This document shows positions 3,733 to 22,371 of a stretch of 64,000 nt of DNA, in pieces (positions within the stretch are counted from its first letter, which is position 1; every line of letters begins with the position of its first letter). The notes under the pieces are model-generated. The model was not told the DNA's origin, made no database searches, and worked only from the letters and a program-made list of their open reading frames with translations. Location of the stretch: assembly GCF_988243305.1 (NCBI RefSeq), contig NZ_OZ547136.1. One strand, written 5' to 3'. The position numbers and the translations under genes were made by a program.

Positions 3733-4094
3733 ACATCCCGGTTTCTTCCACCATCGCACCGGAAAAGCAACTATGAGGGTAACCCTGCGTCTGTCAGCAC
3801 AGTAAAACCCGGTGTGCATCGTTTTTGATTATTCCCGCACACTCACGCAGAAGGAATTCCCCGTCGGGCTACGGTCATGGTTAATGCGGGAATACGGCGA
3901 CGATACAGCGCAGCTAAAAGGGTAATGGACAGAAAGAGCGGTTTATTTCATTCCACAGGATTCTGAGTGTCCCCAACTTCCTCCAATAGTCTGAGCGTAC
4001 ACCTATATAGTTTTAATTTTCATCAATCCATTTAACTATCGTTTAATTGTTGTCACATAGGATTCCGCCGTTTTTAACAATGCAGGATAATAAG

Positions 4095-4388
4095 ATGAAA
4101 AAAATGTTGTTTTCTGCCGCTCTGGCAATGCTTATTACAGGATGTGCTCAACAGACGTTTACTGTTGGAAACAAACCGACAGCAGTAACACCAAAGGAAA
4201 CCATCACCCATCACTTCTTCGTTTCGGGAATTGGACAGGAGAAAACTGTTGATGCAGCCAAAATTTGTGGCGGCGCAGAAAATGTTGTTAAAACAGAAAC
4301 CCAGCAAACATTCGTAAATGGATTGCTCGGTTTTATTACTTTAGGCATTTATACTCCGCTGGAAGCGCGTGTGTATTGCTCACAATAA
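4095..4388 (+). CDS. bor: Bor lipoprotein (serum resistance)
   Basis: I trimmed the start to MKKMLFSAALAMLITGCAQQTFTV... (97 aa). It has a lipobox LITGC and its C-terminus ...GIYTPLEARVYCSQ matches lambda Bor. Confidence 0.9.
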   Translation: MKKMLFSAALAMLITGCAQQTFTVGNKPTAVTPKETITHHFFVSGIGQEKTVDAAKICGGAENVVKTETQQTFVNGLLGFITLGIYTPLEARVYCSQ

Positions 4389-6237: not shown

Positions 6238-6387
6238 TTCTTGCTCCTCAATCCATTAAAATCTCAGCAATAGTAGTTGTTACGTCCGCCACTGGCTCAG
6301 AGCTGACTATCCGCTAAATTTAGCTCAGTGCCGTAGCTGTGTCAGAACAAACCTAAGCCGAAACCGTTTATTACAAAACAATAAATA

Positions 6388-7813: not shown

Positions 7814-7890
7814 TGGCGCGCTGTACTGGATTCGAACCAGTAACCGATTGCTTAGAAGGCAATTGCTCTGTCCGGCTGAGCTAACAACGC
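7814..7890 (-). tRNA. tRNA-Arg (anticodon UCU, reads AGA)
   Basis: The reverse complement GCGTTGTTAGCTCAGCCGGACAGAGCAATTGCCTTCTAAGCAATCGGTTACTGGTTCGAATCCAGTACAGCGCGCCA folds as a cloverleaf. The acceptor stem GCGTTGT/ACAGCGC pairs, the anticodon loop is CT-TCT-AA, TPsiC is GGTTCGAATCC, and the CCA is encoded. Confidence 0.9.
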
Positions 7891-7994: not shown

Positions 7995-8070
7995 TGGTGG
8001 CCCTTGCTGGATTTGAACCAGCGACCTGGCGATTATGAGTCGCTCGCTCTCACCACTGAGCTAAAGGGCC
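7995..8070 (-). tRNA. tRNA with CAU anticodon, ileX/ileZ-like (Ile2, lysidine-type) rather than Met
   Basis: The reverse complement GGCCCTTTAGCTCAGTGGTGAGAGCGAGCGACTCATAATCGCCAGGTCGCTGGTTCAAATCCAGCAAGGGCCACCA closely resembles E. coli ileX as I recall it. The acceptor stem is GGCCCTT/AAGGGCC. Confidence 0.85.
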
Positions 8071-10915: not shown

Positions 10916-11071
10916 TTACTCCTCAGGTTCGTAAACTGTGAAGACAGCGACCTCCGTCTGGCCGGTTCGGATTCGTACCTCGCAGAGGTCTTTCCTCGTT
11001 ACCAGTGCCGTCACTATGACGGTTAAACAGATGACGATCAGGGCGATTAACATCGCCTTTTGCTGCTTCAT
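10916..11071 (-). CDS. hokD: HokD (RelF) type I toxin; the 70-aa overlapping ORF to 11128 is the mok-like frame
   Basis: The ORF MKQQKAMLIALIVICLTVIVTALVTRKDLCEVRIRTGQTEVAVFTVYEPEE (51 aa) belongs to the Hok family. Confidence 0.9.
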   Translation of the reverse strand: MKQQKAMLIALIVICLTVIVTALVTRKDLCEVRIRTGQTEVAVFTVYEPEE

Positions 11072-11282
11072 AGCCTGCTTCTCCTTGCCTTTCGGCACGT
11101 AAGAGGCTAACCTAGATTTGCCGTTCATAGATTGAGCCTCAGATTAATGTTAAGCGTCTTGCAGGACGCGTAATGTTAACTGGGGCTTTTCTCTATCTGC
11201 CTTTGGTGTTCATGCCTGAGGCAGATAGCCTCAAGCACCCGCAGCAATTCTACTTAACTCCCGTCACCTCGCCAATATAAAA

Positions 11283-11372: not shown

Positions 11373-11791
11373 GACAACCTCCTGTATTGGACGTACACCA
11401 GTTCTGATAAATATGAGGCTGTCTCATCATTGATTCAATATAACTATTGGGTATAGTTTCTGTGATTTTGTTCTGTAGAAATGGAACACAACAACCAGTC
11501 ACCACCAGCACTTCTTTAAATACGCCAAGTCCGACGCAAGCTAACCTTCTAGTCCGCTTTGAGCGAGGAGCGGACCAAACCCGGCCAACTGACTCTTAAA
11601 GGGGCCGCAGGAATTTTTCGTCTGAACTTTCGAAGCTCCTCTCCCTGAAGACAGAAAACTTCTGTGTGCTGTGGGAATATTGAATCTTTGCATTAGATAT
11701 AAATAATTTTATCCCGCCTGAAGTTTACATTATTTTATTTATCTGTTTTTCTAAATCAGACTGCACTCCTTACTTAAATCAGGAGCCAGTC

Positions 11792-12991
11792 ATGCCATTT
11801 GTTATTTATGTGTTTACTATCAGTGCCTTTGCGCTCGGACTCGCGGAATTTGTCCCCATTGGGCTGACAGACGTTATGGCTCAGGGGTTGTGTGTGGGTG
11901 TGGAGCAGACCGGGGCAGCGGTTACAACCTATGCACTGGGGGCAACGTTCGCGGCACCCGTACTGTCTGCGCTGACAGCAAGCTGGAGCCGGAAAAATGT
12001 AATGCTTACAACTGCCGTTGTGTTTACTGCCGGTAGTCTGGCGGCCGCGTTTGCAGCCACATTACCTCAGCTCCTGTTAGCGCGGTTCATTGCTGGTCTG
12101 GGACACGGCCTGTTTCTGGCTGCGGCATCCAGTACCGCAGCTCGTCTTGCTGGACCGGGTAAAGCAGGCAGAGCGGTGGCTGTGGTATTTGGTGGCTTTA
12201 CTCTGGCGATGGCAATCGGCGTACCGCTGAGTACATGGTTGGGGGGGGTGGTCTCATGGCGTCCAGTTCTCGGCGCTATTGCCGCTTTTGGCGCGTTCGG
12301 ATTCCTTGGACTGTTGTTCGGTATGAAAGATCCCGTACGCAGCGTGCCCGGTGAACATAGTGACTCAGCAATGCAGAATATCGGCATGCTGTTTAACCGT
12401 AAGTTGCTGGCCGGCGCGCTGGTTACGGTGCTGGCGTATGCAGGCTCGTTTACGGCTTACACCTTTATCGCACCTATTCTGACGCAGGTGACAGGGGTTA
12501 CCGGAGCAAAGGTGAGTCTGTTTATGCTGGTTTACGGTATTACAGCTGCGGTAGGTAATATTCTTGGTGGGAAACTTACCGACAGCATGGGGGTTAATCG
12601 TGCCAATATACTCATCATTAGCGGCATTGTTGTTGTCGTGCTTGGTATGTGGCTGCTGTCATCCTCACCGGTGAGCATGGGCATTCTGGTTGCGCTGCTG
12701 GGTATGGTGACATTTGCCGCAGTGCCGGCACTGCAGGCCCGTCTGATTGGTGTCGCTGAGCAACATGCTCCTCATGCGCATGGTGTTGCTGCCGGCCTGA
12801 ATATTGCGGGCTTCAACTCAGGTATAGCGCTGGGATCAGTACTGGGCAGCATTACTATAAGCCACGCCGGTATCGTGTATACCGGTATCAGCGGTGCGAT
12901 TGTTTCTCTGCTCGGCCTGCTGTTGCTGCTTGCACAAATCCGTCGCAGCCACAGTCGTAAATTTCAACAGGTTAAAATCGTAGGCCAGTAA
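11792..12991 (+). CDS. MFS transporter (12-TM, sugar/drug efflux-like)
   Basis: The 399-aa ORF is uniformly hydrophobic and has MFS_1-like loop motifs (GLGHGLF, GRAVAVVFGG). Confidence 0.85.
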   Translation: MPFVIYVFTISAFALGLAEFVPIGLTDVMAQGLCVGVEQTGAAVTTYALGATFAAPVLSALTASWSRKNVMLTTAVVFTAGSLAAAFAATLPQLLLARFIAGLGHGLFLAAASSTAARLAGPGKAGRAVAVVFGGFTLAMAIGVPLSTWLGGVVSWRPVLGAIAAFGAFGFLGLLFGMKDPVRSVPGEHSDSAMQNIGMLFNRKLLAGALVTVLAYAGSFTAYTFIAPILTQVTGVTGAKVSLFMLVYGITAAVGNILGGKLTDSMGVNRANILIISGIVVVVLGMWLLSSSPVSMGILVALLGMVTFAAVPALQARLIGVAEQHAPHAHGVAAGLNIAGFNSGIALGSVLGSITISHAGIVYTGISGAIVSLLGLLLLLAQIRRSHSRKFQQVKIVGQ

Positions 12992-13002
12992 AGGGAGGTT
13001 AT

Positions 13003-13695
13003 ATGCTTACCCGTGAAAATATGCTTAATGGCACATTTGTCAGGGTGCATGAAGCGCTGCTCCCGGCGAATATGCTCTGGGACGCTGAAAAAATACGCGC
13101 ATCAATGAACTCTACTCTGGAGGAGCGCCCGACGGGTGCTCCTTTCTGGATATTTGCCTACGGGTCATTGATGTGGAATCCCGTGCTGGCAATTGAAGAA
13201 ATGCAACGGGCCCGTCTGAAAGGATGGCAGCGCAGTTTCTGCATTCGTTTGATATCCGGACGAGCGACTCCTGATGTCCCCGGCAGGATGTTATCGCTCG
13301 ACGAAGGTGGAATTACCGAAGGTATTGCGTTCAGACTGCCGGAATCGACTCTTATTAATGAGCTGGAAATTGTCTGGACGCGCGAGATGATAACCGGTCT
13401 TTACCGTCCGGTCTGGGCAGACGTTTCGCTAGGAAACGGTGAGGAAATTCAGGCGCTGGCTTTCGTATCAGACAGACTGCATCCGCATTATGAACAGGAC
13501 AATCTTACAGCGACCGTAGCGTTGAGCATCGCATCTGCCCGTGGAGACATTGGCACGAATGCAGATTATGTATGGAAACTGCAGGCCACTCTGGGTGCGT
13601 TGGGAATACGGGATGATTACGTGAGTGAACTGGCCCTTGCTCTGCATGAGGCTCCCTGTAACGATAAACTTCATCAGCGAGGCGCTTCACTATGA
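13003..13695 (+). CDS. ChaC-family gamma-glutamylcyclotransferase
   Basis: It carries FWIFAYGSLMWNP...PGRMLSL..GG...G.AFRL...REM motifs, as in E. coli ChaC. Confidence 0.8.
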   Translation: MLTRENMLNGTFVRVHEALLPANMLWDAEKIRASMNSTLEERPTGAPFWIFAYGSLMWNPVLAIEEMQRARLKGWQRSFCIRLISGRATPDVPGRMLSLDEGGITEGIAFRLPESTLINELEIVWTREMITGLYRPVWADVSLGNGEEIQALAFVSDRLHPHYEQDNLTATVALSIASARGDIGTNADYVWKLQATLGALGIRDDYVSELALALHEAPCNDKLHQRGASL

Positions 13696-14573
13696 GCCAT
13701 CTGAGCCATCTGCGAACGTTTCTTGAGGCCTATCGCTCTGGCTCCTTTTCAAAGGCGGCAGAACTACTGGGCATCACTCAGCCCGCGGCGTCACAGCATA
13801 TCCAGTCTCTTGAGACTCTGGTTGGTAAGCGTCTGTTTATCAGGCAGGCCAGAGGCGTGACGGCAACCGAAGCTGCGGATGAGCTTGCCCGCTCAGTTTC
13901 ACCCTTCATTGATGGTCTGGAAGAAAAGCTGTCCTCTTTCCGGTCAGGCTCTGTACACGGGGGAACAATTAATCTGGCAGGACCGCCAGATTTTATTCAT
14001 TCCCGGCTTGGGACAGTAATGGCTCCACTAATGAAGGAGGGGTATCGCCTACGCTTTCATACCGGCAATAAGCAACGTATTTATTCCCTTTTGCATGACG
14101 GGAGCGCCGATCTCGCTGTTACCGCATCTATGCCTGATGACCGTCTGTACGGCTATGCACATCTACTGACTGAACGCATGCTCCTTGTTCATGCTCCCGC
14201 CATGTCAGAGATCATCGGATCAGAACCTGGTGCTGAAACGCTTGCCTCATTACCGCTGATTGCTTATGACGAAGAGTTGCCACTGATTAGAGCGCTCTGG
14301 GCCTCCATGTTTCAGAGAGCCCCTGAGATGCAGGCTACATTCACCATTCCGGATTTACGTATTATCCGCGACTTGGTCTGTGACGGCCACGGGTGGACAG
14401 TGCTGCCGGATTATCACTGTGACAATGACCTGAAAAGTGGTCGCCTGATTTCAGTGACACCTGCAGACCTCGCTCCGACTAATCATCTTTATCTGGTCTG
14501 GAACAAAAGGACGGCTAATAACAGCCGAACCGCCTATGTTCGGGATTACATTCTTAAAACGTTTCCGCGTTGA
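13692..14573 (+). CDS. LysR-family transcriptional regulator
   Basis: It has an N-terminal HTH LRTFLEAYRSGSFSKAAELLGITQPAASQHIQSLE, and its 293-aa length is typical of the family. Confidence 0.85.
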   Translation: MSHLSHLRTFLEAYRSGSFSKAAELLGITQPAASQHIQSLETLVGKRLFIRQARGVTATEAADELARSVSPFIDGLEEKLSSFRSGSVHGGTINLAGPPDFIHSRLGTVMAPLMKEGYRLRFHTGNKQRIYSLLHDGSADLAVTASMPDDRLYGYAHLLTERMLLVHAPAMSEIIGSEPGAETLASLPLIAYDEELPLIRALWASMFQRAPEMQATFTIPDLRIIRDLVCDGHGWTVLPDYHCDNDLKSGRLISVTPADLAPTNHLYLVWNKRTANNSRTAYVRDYILKTFPR

Positions 14574-14703
14574 TGTTTGAAACGGATGATTGGCGATGTG
14601 TATCATAAGTTACGTATGTCCGCTTCTGGCACAAAGCAGACGCCCACTCTCACGCGAATGCTTTGCCCTTGACTTGCCAACAACCGTATCGCTTGCTCCG
14701 CAA

Positions 14704-15996
14704 CTATGGTTTTTTATTAGAACCTTCGCCACTAAATAAATTATAATAAATTGATTTTATTAGATATCTGTCAGAATCTATATGGTCAGCACGAGTAGCA
14801 TGCTCTAATGTTTCAAATGCTAGGGTTTGTGCGGCTTCAGCAAAAATTCCAGGCCAACCCTTACTCAGCATCGACAGTCCTTTAAGTACCCTTATCTGAA
14901 TTTCCCTCATACTGGCACCATCGCGCGCAACAGGTGAGAAAAAGTCTTCAAGTAGATCGTTATTCTGAAGTGGTGCAACATGTACAGAAGGATATTTCAC
15001 TTCTATTTCATCAGATTTATTCTGCGCGTAAGCGGAAAGTATACGTACACCTCTGCCAATGACATCAATGGCGGTTCCAGGATCGTTCACTGCGGGGGAA
15101 AGGGCTCGGCAGGCTATTTCGGCCATGACGCTAAGACAAAATCGGGGGTCCTGAGCAAATGAACGTACATCCGAGACAATAATCGTCTCAAGTAAATCGG
15201 TGCTGATTGATGACTCCTGGCCCTGACTCAGGTACAAAACTGGCGTGGACGGATGTATGAAACTGCCCGGCTGCGCCACGAGGTATACATGACGGGGATC
15301 ATTGGTCAGCAGCTTGCTGAGTTTCACCATATCAACATATTCAACATAGCCAATCTTTTTCGGATAAACTGCAACCGTTCCTTTCGGCTGTTCATTGTTC
15401 TCAAGCCATGGATATCCGCCGAGACAGGGATTTCTTGCTCTCGCAATAAATGTTTCGATGGCCGCCTGTTCTACTTTTGCCGTTGTCTCACCAACCCTCC
15501 CCAGAGAGGTCAAATGCTGTATCCAGCGAAGCAATGTGATGAGGATTAAGGCAATGACAACCAGTGTTACAATGAATAAAATGACTCTCCCCCTTTCTCC
15601 ATAAGCTCCCATATTGAGGGCAATAATCCCTACCAGACTGAAGAGAAAAGAACCGATGAAGGTGGCCAGTACATTTTGTGTGGTGACGTCTTCAACAACT
15701 AAACGAGTAGCTCTGGGAGTCACATTAGTAGTGGCTGAACCGTAGGCTGTGACCATGATGCTCAGCGAAAATGTGGTCACTGCCAGCATACTCGATGCCA
15801 GTATGTTCAGAATGTTATCGACTGCTTCCGCACCAACCTTCACGGAAACCGACTCAGGTATCATTGATTTAAAAAGAATTGATAAAAGGGCCGTTATTAT
15901 TGCGACAATTGCGAATAACGTTGCCCTGAACCATAGTTTTTTAAATGTCTGCTTCAGCATCCATTTCCAGCGTGAAATCATTCTGCATTCCCTCAT
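14704..15996 (-). CDS. DUF2254-family membrane protein
   Basis: It has four N-terminal TM helices followed by a soluble domain. The start could be the internal MISRWKW (15981). Confidence 0.7.
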   Translation of the reverse strand: MRECRMISRWKWMLKQTFKKLWFRATLFAIVAIITALLSILFKSMIPESVSVKVGAEAVDNILNILASSMLAVTTFSLSIMVTAYGSATTNVTPRATRLVVEDVTTQNVLATFIGSFLFSLVGIIALNMGAYGERGRVILFIVTLVVIALILITLLRWIQHLTSLGRVGETTAKVEQAAIETFIARARNPCLGGYPWLENNEQPKGTVAVYPKKIGYVEYVDMVKLSKLLTNDPRHVYLVAQPGSFIHPSTPVLYLSQGQESSISTDLLETIIVSDVRSFAQDPRFCLSVMAEIACRALSPAVNDPGTAIDVIGRGVRILSAYAQNKSDEIEVKYPSVHVAPLQNNDLLEDFFSPVARDGASMREIQIRVLKGLSMLSKGWPGIFAEAAQTLAFETLEHATRADHIDSDRYLIKSIYYNLFSGEGSNKKP

Positions 15997-16044
15997 ATTG
16001 CAGCCGGGATAAATAAATGCCGCCTCTGTGGCGGCATGTTGCTG

Positions 16045-18048
16045 TTAACGAACCAGATGCAGGAAGTGCAGGTGTTTTTCGTACTGGTCCAGTATGTCAT
16101 TAATCAGCTGTTCCTGATTCCAGCCCATTACATCATAATTTTGGCCGCCCTCTTTGAGATAGACTTCAGCGCGATAATATCGATGTTGTTCACTCTGCTG
16201 CTCATCATTATCCAGCGCAGCGAGCGCGAAGGTCGGTGAGTTATACCCGCGAAGCCTCACTTCATATATATAATTCAGCTCGTTGCCCAAATCGACTTCA
16301 AGGCGAATACGATCCTCGGCGGCGTCACTGATGTGGCTTATCGTTCCCTGCTTGTTAAGTTCCTCCTGAACCAGCGTCATGGCGGGTTGGATAATGTCGT
16401 CCATAAAACGTTTCACAAGAGAGCGCTTCGGCAAATACGCGATATTGCGTAACCTTCTCTGCCAGGGAATTGGGTTACGTGCAGCCGTAGGAGCAATAGT
16501 CGCCATGCTAAGGCTTTCACGCTTGGTCAAATCCCGACGCAGGGCTTTTAACAGTCCGTATATGGATATTAATAAGATAACTGAGAAGGGCAATGCACTC
16601 GCTATCGTTACGGTTTGCAACGCACTCAGCCCCCCTGCGATCAGCAGGGCAATAGCAACAACGCCCATGAGCGATGCCCAGAAAATTCGCTGCCAGACGG
16701 GCGTGTTTGCCACCCCACCTGATGCCAGAGTATCCACAACCATTGCCCCCGAATCAGCAGACGTTACAAAGAAGACGATGACCATCGCCATTGCAATGAA
16801 TGACAGCACGGAAGAGAACGGGAAATGCTCCAGGAAATTAAACAGGGCAAGCGCAACATCCTGCTGAACGGTATTGGCGAGGTCAGTGGCGCCCTGGTTC
16901 ATGATGAGATAGATGGCGCTGTTTCCAAACACCGTCATCCACATGAGCGTAAAGCCGGCGGGAACAAACAACACGCCAGTCACGAACTCACGAATTGTCC
17001 TGCCGCGGGAAACGCGTGCAATGAACATACCTACAAACGGCGACCATGAAAGCCACCATCCCCAGTATAATAATGTCCAGCCCCCCAGCCAGTTGCTCGA
17101 CTTGGGTTCATACGCGTAAAGGTTGAACGTTTTACTCACCAGTTCCGACAGATAACCACCCGTATTTTCCACAAATGACTTCAGCAGAAGCACAGTGGGA
17201 CCCAGGCACAAGACCAGCGCCAGGAGCAACACCGCCAGGCCCAGATTAAGCTCAGACAGGATGCGTATTCCCTTGTCCAGGCCGGACACCACCGAAATCG
17301 TCGCTAACCCCGTGATGACCACGATCAAAATGACCTGTACCGTTTCATTGATGGGCACGCCGAAAAGATGGTTCAAACCGGCATTCACCTGCAATACACC
17401 GTAACCCAGTGATGTTGCAACGCCAAAGACAGTGCCTATCACGGCGAAGATATCAACCGCGTGGCCTATAGGCCCGTAAATGCGATCGCCGATAATGGGA
17501 TAGAGCGCAGAACGCAGCGTTAAAGGCAGACCGTGACGGTAACTGAAAAAGGCCAGAATCAGCGCCACGATGGCATAAATTGCCCATGCGTGCAGACCCC
17601 AGTGGAAGAACGTCAGGCGCATGGCTTCCTTCGCTGCCGCAACGGTCTCTGGAGTGCCGACAGGTGGCGAAAGATAATGCATCACAGGTTCGGCAACGCC
17701 AAAGAACATCAGGCCGATCCCCATCCCTGCCGAAAAAAGCATCGCGAACCAGGAGTGGTAGCTGAAATCAGGCTGCGCATGGTCTGGGCCCAGCTTTATA
17801 TCACCGTAACGTGAGAGTCCAAGGAACGTGACGCTCAGTAAAATCAGGGCCACAGCAAGTATGTAGAACCAGCTGGCATTCGTGAAGATTTGTTGCTGAA
17901 GTAGTTTAAAATTTTTGTCGGCGACATCCGGGAATACGGCGGCAAAGGCGACAAGAAGGAAAATTAGCAAAGCAGATGTAAAGAATACCGCTTTGTTAAT
18001 CTGGCTTGTAGACTTCTTTGGGGTTGTATCATTTTCACTCATAATCAT
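16045..18048 (-). CDS. BCCT-family transporter (BetT/choline-betaine-carnitine type)
   Basis: The 667-aa ORF carries the BCCT signature WTLLYWGWWLSWSPFVGMFIARVSRGRTIREF and a long cytoplasmic C-terminal extension, as in BetT. Confidence 0.85.
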   Translation of the reverse strand: MIMSENDTTPKKSTSQINKAVFFTSALLIFLLVAFAAVFPDVADKNFKLLQQQIFTNASWFYILAVALILLSVTFLGLSRYGDIKLGPDHAQPDFSYHSWFAMLFSAGMGIGLMFFGVAEPVMHYLSPPVGTPETVAAAKEAMRLTFFHWGLHAWAIYAIVALILAFFSYRHGLPLTLRSALYPIIGDRIYGPIGHAVDIFAVIGTVFGVATSLGYGVLQVNAGLNHLFGVPINETVQVILIVVITGLATISVVSGLDKGIRILSELNLGLAVLLLALVLCLGPTVLLLKSFVENTGGYLSELVSKTFNLYAYEPKSSNWLGGWTLLYWGWWLSWSPFVGMFIARVSRGRTIREFVTGVLFVPAGFTLMWMTVFGNSAIYLIMNQGATDLANTVQQDVALALFNFLEHFPFSSVLSFIAMAMVIVFFVTSADSGAMVVDTLASGGVANTPVWQRIFWASLMGVVAIALLIAGGLSALQTVTIASALPFSVILLISIYGLLKALRRDLTKRESLSMATIAPTAARNPIPWQRRLRNIAYLPKRSLVKRFMDDIIQPAMTLVQEELNKQGTISHISDAAEDRIRLEVDLGNELNYIYEVRLRGYNSPTFALAALDNDEQQSEQHRYYRAEVYLKEGGQNYDVMGWNQEQLINDILDQYEKHLHFLHLVR

Positions 18049-18382
18049 TTATTCCATTAATTAAATCCGCACTGGATAGAAGGTACTACCTCTCACAGAG
18101 TAGCAAAGTTCAACTGGCTATGCGGGGTTAATCGGAATGCATGGTGGAATGAGTGCCGATACAAATCATCCTATATTCTAAGGAGTTTTAAGTTACTCAG
18201 CCTGCCAATTACTGGGGCATTTAATTTGTATGATCTGTATCAAAGCTGGGATATAAGTTAAGTGAAGTATATTAGGCACGAATTACCAGCGTCTGCTCTT
18301 GGCACAAAGCGGACAACCACGCTAGCTCTACCCTGTGCCACAAAATGTCAATTTGCATCTGAACTAATGCACTTTAATCTCG

Positions 18383-18805
18383 TCACTTCAATAAATACCG
18401 AACATCCCCCTGATAAAACGACAATATGCGCTGCATAACTTCGCTCTTCCGGCACTCGCGACAGATTATGTTTAGGCGACTGTCGTAGCGACGTATTTCT
18501 CCGTCAGGTAATGACCAGATAAGGTCCGGATCAACCACAACCGGTTTCTTCAGCTTTGCCCTCGATAATTTTTTGCGGGCATTTTGCCAGTCTTTACGAG
18601 CCTGTTCAGACGGGAATAACCCGTAGCCAGAATTGTATACATCGCCACTGGCAACCAGCTCTCTGGCCAGAACGCTCATCAGATATCTTGTTGCCCCAGT
18701 TTTAGCTTCCAGTTGTCGTAACGTCTCGCGCCCACTCTGGCGTACGAGTTCAAGAACCTGCCCTTTAATTTTTTCCCGCTCTTCTTGTGTAAAAACTTTT
18801 GCCAC
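18383..18805 (-). CDS. Hypothetical protein, possibly winged-helix (140 aa), downstream of the replication organiser
   Basis: The ORF has no recognisable family. It sits where a helicase loader (P/DnaC-like) would normally be but does not resemble one. Confidence 0.4.
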   Translation of the reverse strand: MAKVFTQEEREKIKGQVLELVRQSGRETLRQLEAKTGATRYLMSVLARELVASGDVYNSGYGLFPSEQARKDWQNARKKLSRAKLKKPVVVDPDLIWSLPDGEIRRYDSRLNIICRECRKSEVMQRILSFYQGDVRYLLK

Positions 18806-18845: not shown

Positions 18846-19934
18846 TTACCCCCTGAAGCCCGGCGGAATTTCGTTATCCGGTTCAGAAATATGATTCACA
18901 CAACGCTGGTTGTTCGTGCCGCTTACCTGGAGCAACCAGGGGTTCTCAAAATTCCGGTCCGGTCCAAAAAACGTCGTCGCTCGCTGAACAAATTCCGTTC
19001 CCGTTTTCCCGGTAGCCGCCAAGTATCTTGCGTAACGCCTCACGCCATCCAGCATGGCCTCTGGTGGCACCCCCTCGCGTAATCTGGCCTTCCAGGCACT
19101 GAAAGCGGATTTCTTCGGGTTTGCCCCAGCACGCAACGGGTACTCCCGCCAGACCTGTTCGAACACATCCGGATAATCCACTCGTCCCACAGACTGCCCG
19201 GTGTTTTCCGGGACTACCCGATCGGCTTCCCGCTGAATGGCGGAATCGGCTTCAGGCTGCTGCAGTTGGTGTGATTGCTCCGCCCTTGCGGTCATCACCT
19301 GCTGCACAGCGCCCGAATCGGCTTTCAGCGCATACGCTGAATCGGCTTCCGGTGTCGTGCCTGCTGGCTGACCAAGATTGACGGTCTGAACATCCCCTGC
19401 CTGGTTCGTGGCGTTTTTTACGCCATGGACCATAGTGTTTTGATCTTCTTGATCTGTATCTTTATCTGTATCTTTATCTGTATCTTTATCTGTCGTGACT
19501 CGTCGTGACATGTGCGTGACATTTCGTGACGCGCCGTGACAATCGCCATTTTGTTCCCGCTTTCTTTCCCTCTCTCGCTGCGCCCTCTTGCGCTCTGCAG
19601 GAGATTTTGCGGTTTGCGAAATATTGCCGTTGTCCTCTTTAAGCACCTGGCGTTTTTCCCATCCAGTGATTAAATCACCATCAAGTACCCGCCCCTGCAT
19701 CGTCTGCAAAATTGAATCAATTACCTCTTCTGTCACGTCGAGCGCACTTGCCAAATCTTCTGTCGTGACATCAATGTGACCTCGCGTGACATTTCGTGAC
19801 GCGCTCACCAGGAGGTGGATATACACTGCCATCACTGTTGCAATTGGCTGCCCTGACACCCTGGCAATTGTTCGCCACTTAGGGTCATTTGGCATGTCAT
19901 GCCATAATCTGAGCCAGGCGTTAGCCATACTCAC
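18846..19934 (-). CDS. Replication initiator / replisome-organiser protein (O-like)
   Basis: The N-terminus MSMANAWLRLWHDMPNDPKWRTIA... is typical of phage replisome organisers. The C-terminus ...FEQVWREYPLRAGANPKKSAFSAWKARL... is a DnaT/phage-C-terminus type. The gene contains internal iterons. Confidence 0.7.
   Translation of the reverse strand: MSMANAWLRLWHDMPNDPKWRTIARVSGQPIATVMAVYIHLLVSASRNVTRGHIDVTTEDLASALDVTEEVIDSILQTMQGRVLDGDLITGWEKRQVLKEDNGNISQTAKSPAERKRAQRERERKREQNGDCHGASRNVTHMSRRVTTDKDTDKDTDKDTDQEDQNTMVHGVKNATNQAGDVQTVNLGQPAGTTPEADSAYALKADSGAVQQVMTARAEQSHQLQQPEADSAIQREADRVVPENTGQSVGRVDYPDVFEQVWREYPLRAGANPKKSAFSAWKARLREGVPPEAMLDGVRRYARYLAATGKTGTEFVQRATTFFGPDRNFENPWLLQVSGTNNQRCVNHISEPDNEIPPGFRG
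19452..19493. repeat. 12-bp tandem repeat ATCTGTATCTTT x3.5 inside the replication gene
   Basis: I read it directly from the sequence. It encodes the (DKDT)n linker TTDKDTDKDTDKDTDQ. Confidence 0.95.
19494..19540. repeat. Origin-like iterons: five CGTGAC at a 10-11 bp period
   Basis: CGTGAC occurs at 19494, 19504, 19515, 19525 and 19535. The 21-mer GCGTGACATTTCGTGACGCGC (19514-19534) recurs exactly at 19784-19804. Confidence 0.8.
19764..19804. repeat. Second iteron cluster (four (C/T)GTGAC at a 10-11 bp period)
   Basis: Sites occur at 19764, 19775, 19785 and 19795. An inverted GTCACG lies at 19732. Confidence 0.8.
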
Positions 19935-22318: not shown

Positions 22319-22371
22319 TTTCTGGTGACGTTTGGCGGTATCAGTTTTACTCCGTGACTGCTCTGCCGCCC
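22319..22371 (+). ncRNA. dicF: DicF small RNA (ftsZ/manX/xylR-targeting)
   Basis: TTTCTGGTGACGTTTGGCGGTATCAGTTTTACTCCGTGACTGCTCTGCCGCCC followed by TTTTT matches the remembered 53-nt K-12 DicF. It lies between ydfC and dicB. Confidence 0.85.

Follow-up and report, generated by a model that had tools for sequence, protein, structure and literature searches.

How do five non-phage genes come to lie among the early genes of a lambdoid prophage, and do they leave the phage intact? The 64,000-nt stretch of contig NZ_OZ547136.1 (RefSeq assembly GCF_988243305.1) studied here, hereafter the window, carries such a prophage at ~1-27.2 kb, integrated between ydfJ and rspB, which is the Qin site of K-12. 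Within it lie genes for an MFS transporter, a ChaC-family gamma-glutamylcyclotransferase, a LysR-family regulator, a DUF2254 membrane protein and a BetT-like BCCT transporter. A first, sequence-only reading had taken these five for one block that replaced the nin region and may have cost the phage its replication functions. We find instead two cassettes that differ in history and distribution. They occupy a variable slot of this Qin-site prophage and are probably exchanged by recombination at a short palindrome that marks their edges.

The slot lies between the early-right replication genes (the initiator and a DUF977/Ren-like gene) and hokD-ydfU-rusA-Q, and cassettes would enter it, leave it and re-assort by recombination at 24-nt edges of the form GTCCGCT-N10-AGCGGAC. 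In enterobacteria, the motif comes with two main types of middle: the hokD-side edge has GAGCGA, the other edges TGGCAC. Cassette 2, the DUF2254-BCCT pair, is widespread among prophages, plasmids and islands rich in insertion sequences (ISs).

The palindrome at the cassette boundaries

The 24-nt imperfect palindrome stands at all three cassette boundaries, with 0.00 copies expected by chance in the window:

11552..11575, plus strand: left boundary motif GTCCGCTTTGAGCGAGGAGCGGAC, middle GAGCGA (D type), the only exact match of its kind in the window; identity to the phages Tritos and Evi stops here
11576..14617, plus strand: cassette 1 (MFS, ChaC, LysR), 86.9% nucleotide match to an Enterobacter trio
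14618..14641, plus strand: middle boundary motif GTCCGCTTCTGGCACAAAGCAGAC, middle TGGCAC (A type); plasmid homology starts here
14642..18290, minus strand: cassette 2 (DUF2254, BCCT), found motif-to-motif on plasmids
18291..18314, plus strand: right boundary motif GTCTGCTCTTGGCACAAAGCGGAC, A type; identity to Tritos and Evi resumes and the plasmids diverge into relB

The breakpoints of homology fall at the motif: related phages part from the window at the outer two copies, plasmids at the middle and right ones, and past the right motif the plasmid runs into the relB promoter in place of DUF977. When seven contexts (the window, plasmid pPO125, three IMG/VR prophages, Enterobacter asburiae and the Escherichia coli fec island) are aligned at the DUF2254 end, their seven unrelated left flanks converge on cassette 2 at the same nucleotides; at its other end, the cassette has two different right partners. 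One and the same cassette is seen with many neighbours and in several replicon types, always in constant orientation relative to the motif.

At the left boundary, the left half of the motif is constant across phages while its right half varies with the cargo; two or three cargo-side bases flanking the 6-nt middle change with the cargo, and the middle and the backbone-side arm stay constant. Across 94 sites with a TGGCAC middle, in loci gathered by their motif and hence biased to motif-bearing junctions, we count 49 left-flank and 27 right-flank families in 54 combinations. Seventeen cargo families adjoin the DUF977 backbone, and three of them meet different backbone haplotypes that diverge within 8-30 nt of the motif.

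Where, then, is the motif found and where not? The complete Evi genome (40 kb) has it only at both edges of the slot, and E. coli DNA, as far as sampled, has it in the prophage slot alone. Around the chromosomal counterparts of the two cassettes, the flanks are motif-free. The prophage-borne E. asburiae copy of cassette 2 keeps the motif, and the IS-flanked E. coli island copy has a degenerate one. In K-12 Qin (L126), relBE is bounded by the TGGCAC-type motif on the opposite strand, and a GAGCAA-type variant is found past flxA (sites at 15982-16005 and 16973-16996); with respect to hokD, the K-12 array thus stands inverted when set beside the window.

Neither the motif nor the cassette structure appears to have been described: we found no literature account of the motif, of a BCCT gene in Qin, of a DUF2254-BCCT-qnrS1 arrangement, of nin-region hotspots or of palindromes at morons, and Rfam has no family at the window motifs or in eight motif-rich loci. 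By inspection against their consensus sequences, we rejected any likeness to nut/boxB, to Xer/dif sites, to Pin/Hin invertase sites or, for the TGGCAC middle, to a sigma-54 promoter. A weaker motif-like palindrome, GTCCGCCACTGGCTCAGAGCTGAC, lies at 6284-6307 in the moron-rich region between Q and the tRNAs and the lysis genes, near tolA-like open reading frames (ORFs) and DUF3927.

The slot and its two cassettes

In alignments with Tritos and Evi, the phage-shared sequence ends at 11575 and restarts at 18291, which leaves a variable segment of 11576-18290. These alignments narrow the limits given in the sequence-only reading (11512-18382). The backbone on either side comprises:

10916..11128, minus strand: hokD toxin gene (Pfam HOK_GEF; annotated as hokD in identical genomes), left backbone of the slot
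11066-11240: sok RNA (Rfam)
18383..18805, minus strand: DUF977/Ren-like gene (Pfam DUF977; PHROG 142, Ren-like exclusion protein), right backbone of the slot
18846..19934, minus strand: 362-aa replication initiator that includes a loader half; PHROG 3729 (replication initiation) covers the whole protein, PHROG 1701 (DnaD-like helicase loader) residues 132-362

Tritos, Evi and mEp460_ev081 match only the outermost bases of the block used as query; they have the same flanks around 1.4-1.9 kb of other cargo. Their annotated gene order is Q, (rusA), ydfU, hokD, the variable part, DUF977, a 1071-nt replication gene, YdaT and cro/cI, the variable part being a single 444-aa gene in Tritos and an acetyltransferase with a regulator in Evi. 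In IMG/VR contigs retrieved by the motif, both edges of the slot are present at 27 loci, whose cargo, 1.0-6.8 kb long, sorts into 11 groups. PADLOC finds defence candidates in the slot of Tritos, L006 and L050, namely PDC-S15 (in Tritos), Hp1-3 as a set of three genes and a protein like PDC-S02, and a further cargo is a HAD and NUDIX pair. K-12 Qin carries relBE in the corresponding place, as the sequence-only reading had stated and as comparison with K-12 confirms. By the evidence of Tritos, Evi and the 11 cargo groups, the segment lies between conserved phage genes and is missing from collinear relatives, as is characteristic of morons and variable slots.

Identical or 99.8%-identical sequence is annotated in many complete E. 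coli genomes, and of 5426 such genomes 296 contain 80% or more of the 8-kb stretch; block carriers make up ~5% of E. coli genomes, enterotoxigenic E. coli and poultry isolates among them. Full-length relatives show one unbroken prophage from integrase through tail fibres. Alignment to such a relative gives a length of ~47-48 kb, which would lie within lambda-type packaging limits. Base composition does not set the block apart: GC content is 0.519 in cassette 1, 0.482 in cassette 2, 0.483 in the remaining prophage and 0.502 in the chromosome, so that the GC profile proposed earlier as a check, like GC at third codon positions, fails to distinguish the block from its flanks. Other accessories of the prophage in the window are an iss (bor-like) lipoprotein gene (4047-4388), a tRNA-Arg(tct) (7814-7890) and a DicF RNA (22320-22371); a tRNA with a CAT anticodon at 7995-8070 is called Met by ARAGORN and Ile by RefSeq.

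That the block consists of two cassettes with separate histories follows from the different distributions of its halves in E. coli and from the plasmids, which match cassette 2 only. Of the 5426 E. coli genomes, 310 have cassette 1, almost without exception at an identity of at least 99%. Cassette 2 is present in 1965 of the 5426, with ~400 records at 99% or more and ~1550 at 90-95%. A search for the source of the genes, including occurrences outside prophages, leads to chromosomal counterparts in the Enterobacter/Lelliottia group and in Serratia for one or other cassette, and to plasmids for cassette 2; such counterparts in Enterobacter sp. BIGb0383, Lelliottia and Serratia indicate a non-phage origin.

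For cassette 1, positions 11678-14575 have 86.9% nucleotide identity to a chromosomal MFS-ChaC-LysR trio of Enterobacter sp. BIGb0383 (L254 8678-11574), with the same gene lengths and the same ChaC/LysR overlap, in surroundings of ordinary accessory metabolic genes. A version at 82% was found in a metagenomic contig. For cassette 2, the closest DUF2254 proteins are those of E. asburiae (91%), Lelliottia amnigena (77%) and Serratia marcescens (72%). In L. amnigena (L130 1-11275), a motif-free chromosomal BCCT-DUF2254 pair stands beside dcp-ydfG-rspR-ydfZ-ydfI-ydfJ, the neighbourhood of Qin integration in E. coli, and the Serratia pair adjoins usp genes. In E. asburiae (L127-L129, 7178-12177), the pair (91% at the amino-acid level) ends an e14-like prophage, between a Pin-type invertase and purB/icd, and the motif separates it from a DUF2971 gene.

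Plasmids of E. coli, Klebsiella and Enterobacter match window positions 14616-18315 only, at 99.8%; 68 plasmid records reach at least 99% identity to the query, the best matches among those listed all spanning 14616-18315, and ~1300 mostly Klebsiella plasmid records match at 90-95%. On the IncY plasmid pPO125 (L002 4249-12300), the order is IS26, a GAGCGA site, three genes, a TGGCAC site, cassette 2, a TGGCAC site and relBE, the last 98.5% identical to that of K-12. The array adjoins ISKpn19-qnrS1 and appears to be part of a Qin-like cassette array that was taken up into a resistance region. A 94% copy of the BCCT-DUF2254 pair is found in ~1500 E. coli genomes in an island rich in IS3, IS600 and IS911 beside the fec operon (L257 9001-12501; L258 9001-11510); it is shortened in strain AS19, and the degenerate motif GTTTGCTTTTGGCACAAAGCATAC persists at the DUF2254 end. 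In other prophages, cassette 2 is seen with other neighbours again.

Could the block as a whole have a simpler origin? A single large nin-region replacement that removed the loader gene, crippled replication and gave the host beneficial genes in exchange is very unlikely. It would fit the lack of a separate DnaC- or P-like gene beside the initiator, the DnaC-like gene that some related backbones carry upstream of DUF977 (L020, L048, L061), and K-12 Qin, which is itself defective. The earlier statement that no helicase-loader gene is present holds for a separate gene, but not for the initiator, whose residues 132-362 match the DnaD-like loader family: rather than the separate initiator and loader genes of the lambda O/P type, the window has a single 362-aa initiator/DnaD-like protein. 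This protein is 96-97% identical in Tritos and Evi, where the YdaT, initiator and DUF977 set has 93-97% amino-acid identity to the window and likewise no separate helicase loader. Tritos forms plaques and virions (PMC9928086), and Evi was isolated as a plaque-forming temperate phage (PMC6969025). Because these plaque-forming relatives share the loader-less module, the idea that the insertion cost replication functions is unsupported, and the cargo seems to leave the phage functional, its replication module not obviously compromised. On either side of the slot, moreover, the phage sequence is undamaged as far as the motif, and two cassettes that are distributed differently do not suit a single event.

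Delivery by IS elements or a composite transposon, with later loss of the IS copies, is hardly more than a marginal prospect in our estimate. The fec-island copy flanked by IS3, IS600 and IS911 and the plasmid copy in an IS26/ISKpn19 resistance region would speak for it, but between 11000 and 18900 we found no IS, IS remnant or transposase ORF, flanking or otherwise; nor does the block hold a recombinase or phage gene, as the sequence-only reading had noted. The IS-flanked and plasmid copies retain the edge motif, which indicates that the ISs moved an existing cassette array and did not create it. Least likely of all, the five genes would be core chromosome between two separate prophage remnants. 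Relatives of cassette 2 do lie beside dcp-ydfG-ydfI-ydfJ in Lelliottia, the Qin neighbourhood; yet the flanks are contiguous in Tritos and Evi save for the slot, where these phages hold other cargo, the block is lacking in ~95% of E. coli and the full-length prophage is unbroken. The genes are thus cargo inside the prophage, as first proposed.

Predicted functions of the cargo

All five genes are where the sequence-only reading had placed them, as intact ORFs with clear Pfam assignments:

11792..12991, plus strand: MFS transporter, 399 aa (Pfam MFS_1, 2.4e-42)
13003..13695, plus strand: ChaC-family gamma-glutamylcyclotransferase paralogue, 230 aa (Pfam ChaC, 4.8e-35, 121.6 bits against a cutoff of 21)
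13692..14573, plus strand: LysR-family regulator, 293 aa (Pfam HTH_1 and LysR_substrate), overlapping the ChaC stop by 4 nt
14704..15996, minus strand: DUF2254 membrane protein (Pfam DUF2254, 1.6e-92; 425 aa from 15981 in RefSeq)
16017..16037, minus strand: terminator-like hairpin between BCCT and DUF2254 (consensus scan, a pattern match only; 8-bp stem with 6 GC pairs, T-rich tail)
16045..18048, minus strand: BetT-subfamily BCCT transporter, 667 aa (Pfam BCCT, 7e-199)

The BCCT protein scores 661.7 bits with Pfam BCCT (cutoff 27) and 752 bits with the NCBIfam BetT subfamily (cutoff 695), and is 42% identical to K-12 BetT over its full length, C-terminal domain included; the earlier label "BetT-like" is borne out. 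With the glycine-betaine BCCT equivalog it scores 593.5, under the cutoff of 650. Among solved structures it matches PDB 8ybq (E 4e-193), and its best solved relatives are BCCT, trimethylamine and choline transporters. The host would likely gain an additional BetT-type uptake of choline or other quaternary amines, useful under osmotic stress. Unlike the host's own BetT, this one has no betIBA beside it and would therefore either supply the pathway of the host or bring in a compatible solute as such.

The ChaC paralogue has 44% identity to K-12 ChaC, keeps the YGSLMWNP and L-x-E-G-G motifs expected of the family and matches human ChaC2 structures; it is linked to the MFS and LysR genes and not, as its host counterpart, to chaAB. 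The nearest NCBIfam models of the MFS protein are efflux types (Cmx/CmrA, AraJ and NepI, DHA1-type), all under cutoff, and would fit export at least as well as uptake. Because these nearest models are of the efflux type and fall below cutoff, the ChaC and MFS salvage unit proposed earlier is only one possible reading. Judged by family membership, the second likely gain to the host is a gamma-glutamyl cyclotransferase of the ChaC type, under LysR control and accompanied by a DHA1-like MFS transporter. A consensus promoter scan of the cargo gave counts not above those in shuffled sequence.

The motif beyond this phage and the mechanism of exchange

Is the palindrome peculiar to these phages? We scanned the exact pattern GTCCGCTNNTGGCACAAAGCGGAC over one genome per GTDB species and found at least 120 loci, where by our own estimate ~0.07 chance matches were expected. 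Motif copies within one locus are nearly always co-oriented. In Enterobacterales, the motif is present in Pantoea, Mixta, Erwinia, Klebsiella, Citrobacter, Enterobacter, Kluyvera, Leclercia and others, and a conserved linker often joins sites of the TGGCAC and GAGCGA types into a ~65-nt composite; such composites bound small accessory modules. In Pseudescherichia, the modules between composites are an ASCH gene, a PIN toxin module and an arsRBC-arsH operon; in '[Erwinia] mediterraneensis' and Enterobacter, they are linked to LysR or AraC regulators. These arrays were read from 8-kb loci, which are too short to place them in or out of prophages. With the composite (A-linker-D) as query, BLAST found nothing in phage records at E<=0.01, probably because it is not sensitive enough for matches of 24 nt.

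In contigs that have P2-like tail genes (L013, L071, L078, L107), the TGGCAC motif (at about +0) abuts an umuDC-like pair (umuC-like gene at +42) and an SOS-response-associated peptidase, and a site of the GAGCGA type follows at a distance of 1.3-2 kb; the motif thus bounds cargo outside lambdoid phages, too.

A different picture is presented by metagenome-assembled genomes (MAGs) of Hyphomicrobiales/Xanthobacteraceae. Here, the same stems, with middles TGGCAC, GGGGGT and GACCC, are clustered at 45-nt spacing between ordinary chromosomal genes (loci L134-L253, e.g. L206 420-534, L184 3975-4089 and L213 2364-2478). ORF finders translate these repeats into recurring peptides, MSAFGTKRT and VRYWHKAD among them, which may seed spurious gene calls. 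The few matches in MAGs labelled Actinomycetota or Acidobacteriota may be binning errors. In the alphaproteobacterial set, stems of the form GTCTGCT/AGCGGAC, compatible with G·T pairing on one strand, outnumber GTCCGCT/AGCAGAC by 51 to 14, an asymmetry that points to a strand-specific single-strand hairpin.

Mobile elements, too, may recognize the motif. An IS110-family element of ~1.5 kb (DEDD_Tnp_IS110 and Transposase_20, 425 aa) sits in the motif centre, between GTCCGCTT and TTGGCAC, in two contexts (L097, slot 1453-2730, compared with L004/Evi; L041 compared with L095). This suggests that the IS targets the motif; other members of the IS110 family target repetitive extragenic palindromes (REPs). 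Genes for FimB/FimE-like tyrosine recombinases (~200 aa) lie 40-270 nt from repeats at three places (L169 275-1108, L193 2848-3450, L225 6437-7138). As cognate enzymes they were set aside, since three of ~95 alphaproteobacterial loci are too few for an association, and they serve as a lead only.

To what known systems could these arrays belong? Like other lambdoid morons (relBE in K-12 Qin, bor/iss, lom), the cassettes are non-phage genes with their own regulators, set between conserved phage genes, lacking in close relatives and dispensable, and the relBE region of Qin is even bounded by the same motif; they differ in being two multi-gene cassettes of 6.7 kb with a conserved 24-nt palindrome at their junctions. 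The hotspots of P2 and P4 (PMC13586616) are likewise fixed slots between conserved genes, always occupied, with fast turnover and often with defence systems. However, they belong to another phage family and slot, the window's cargo is metabolic and transport-related rather than defensive, and the text of that study mentions no junction motif. Integron cassettes share the array in which each cassette is followed by a palindrome, the distinct site type at the array head, re-assortment and fixed orientation to the sites. Yet there is no IntI: the only integrase of the prophage is a 431-aa phage Int ~7.5 kb away, and none stands beside the arrays in other loci. Nor are the sites attC-like, being 24-nt sites of conserved sequence (GTCCGCT-N10-AGCGGAC) without R and L boxes (RYYYAAC/GTTRRRY), and the prophage-located cassettes hold 2-4 genes with regulators instead of promoterless single ORFs. 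End-to-end complementarity of a single cassette, as expected of circular cassettes, fits cassette 2 and the Tritos cargo, but not L009, L048 or L088. The pdif modules of Acinetobacter, finally, are accessory modules (toxin-antitoxin, resistance, transport) between short arm-spacer-arm palindromes in many contexts; our motif, with arms of 7-9 nt, is by inspection unlike XerC/XerD sites.

E. coli REPs and bacterial interspersed mosaic elements (BIMEs) resemble the repeats beyond the phage: they, too, are short, imperfect, intergenic palindromes in many copies, co-oriented, in composite clusters with conserved linkers and targeted by ISs. The Hyphomicrobiales MAGs and several Enterobacterales loci have repeats of this kind, as distinct from the slot-bound copies of E. 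coli. The motif sequence is, however, unrelated to that of E. coli REPs, and no gene for an IS200-like transposase or REP-associated tyrosine transposase (RAYT) was found nearby: a phmmer search of the 9022 ORFs of all loci gave no match at E<=1, with an IS200 TnpA as query, though RAYTs may be too distant for it or encoded elsewhere. It is conceivable, though we doubt it, that the motif is merely a REP-like selfish repeat in dispensable intergenic DNA, and that cargo turns over either by illegitimate recombination or by ordinary homologous recombination within the phage genes alongside; the breakpoints would then coincide with the repeats because these are the only sequence shared in the variable region. 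The 45-nt-spaced MAG clusters between ordinary genes, the wobble asymmetry and the IS110 insertions all favour such a view. Against it stand the breakpoints at identical nucleotides in seven contexts, the bases beside the middle that track the cargo side and the failure to find an IS200/RAYT-like gene in the sampled loci. It would, besides, still place the exchange at the motif, and differs in mechanism, not in outcome.

Several observations weigh against cassette exchange by recombination at the motif in a working phage. None of 50,697 phage records carries the block, and there is no sequenced virion with this cargo. An empty site, with the hokD-side half fused to the DUF977-side half, has 0 matches in IMG/VR. 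No recombinase is tied to the motif among the sampled loci. The three motif copies of the window, folded on both strands, form hairpins no better than shuffled sequences (z -0.98 to +0.96), and we therefore make no claim of a structural hairpin for E. coli. The more distant homologues of DUF2254, from Pantoea and Alcanivorax, stand apart from any BCCT gene. In one near-identical relative of the prophage, an IS interrupts the integrase and the exonuclease gene contains an internal stop, though both ORFs are open in the window. The functions given to the cargo, lastly, derive from family membership only.

On balance, we infer that recombination at the motif loads, swaps and exports cassettes. 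As to how, the 7-9-nt arms around a conserved 6-nt middle of two types would be like the core site of a tyrosine recombinase; equally possible is a REP-like repeat with short-homology or HUH-type recombination. More tentatively, and with more doubt than belief, we raise the broader idea that the palindromes are the recombination sites of an undescribed, integron-independent cassette-exchange system, evolutionarily tied to the REP-like repeats of Hyphomicrobiales. Such a system would move transporters, toxin-antitoxin pairs, ars operons, defence systems and LysR-regulated enzymes among enterobacterial prophages, plasmids and chromosomes.

The cargo of the window is ordinary in kind, a prophage-borne BetT-like transporter and a small regulated metabolic module, in a slot where lambdoid phages of the Qin/Rac type generally accommodate cargo and defence genes; and the missing separate helicase-loader gene does not, as might be tempting to think, mean a dead phage. 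What appears to be new is the anatomy of the cassettes and their boundary motif, with one cassette moved among prophage types, an IS-rich island and qnrS1 plasmids and cut each time at the motif. If the palindrome is a true recombination site, it would give the idea of lambdoid "modular exchange at linker sequences" a concrete, testable mechanism, and would account for the loading of chromosomal genes into phages and for their onward transfer to plasmids.

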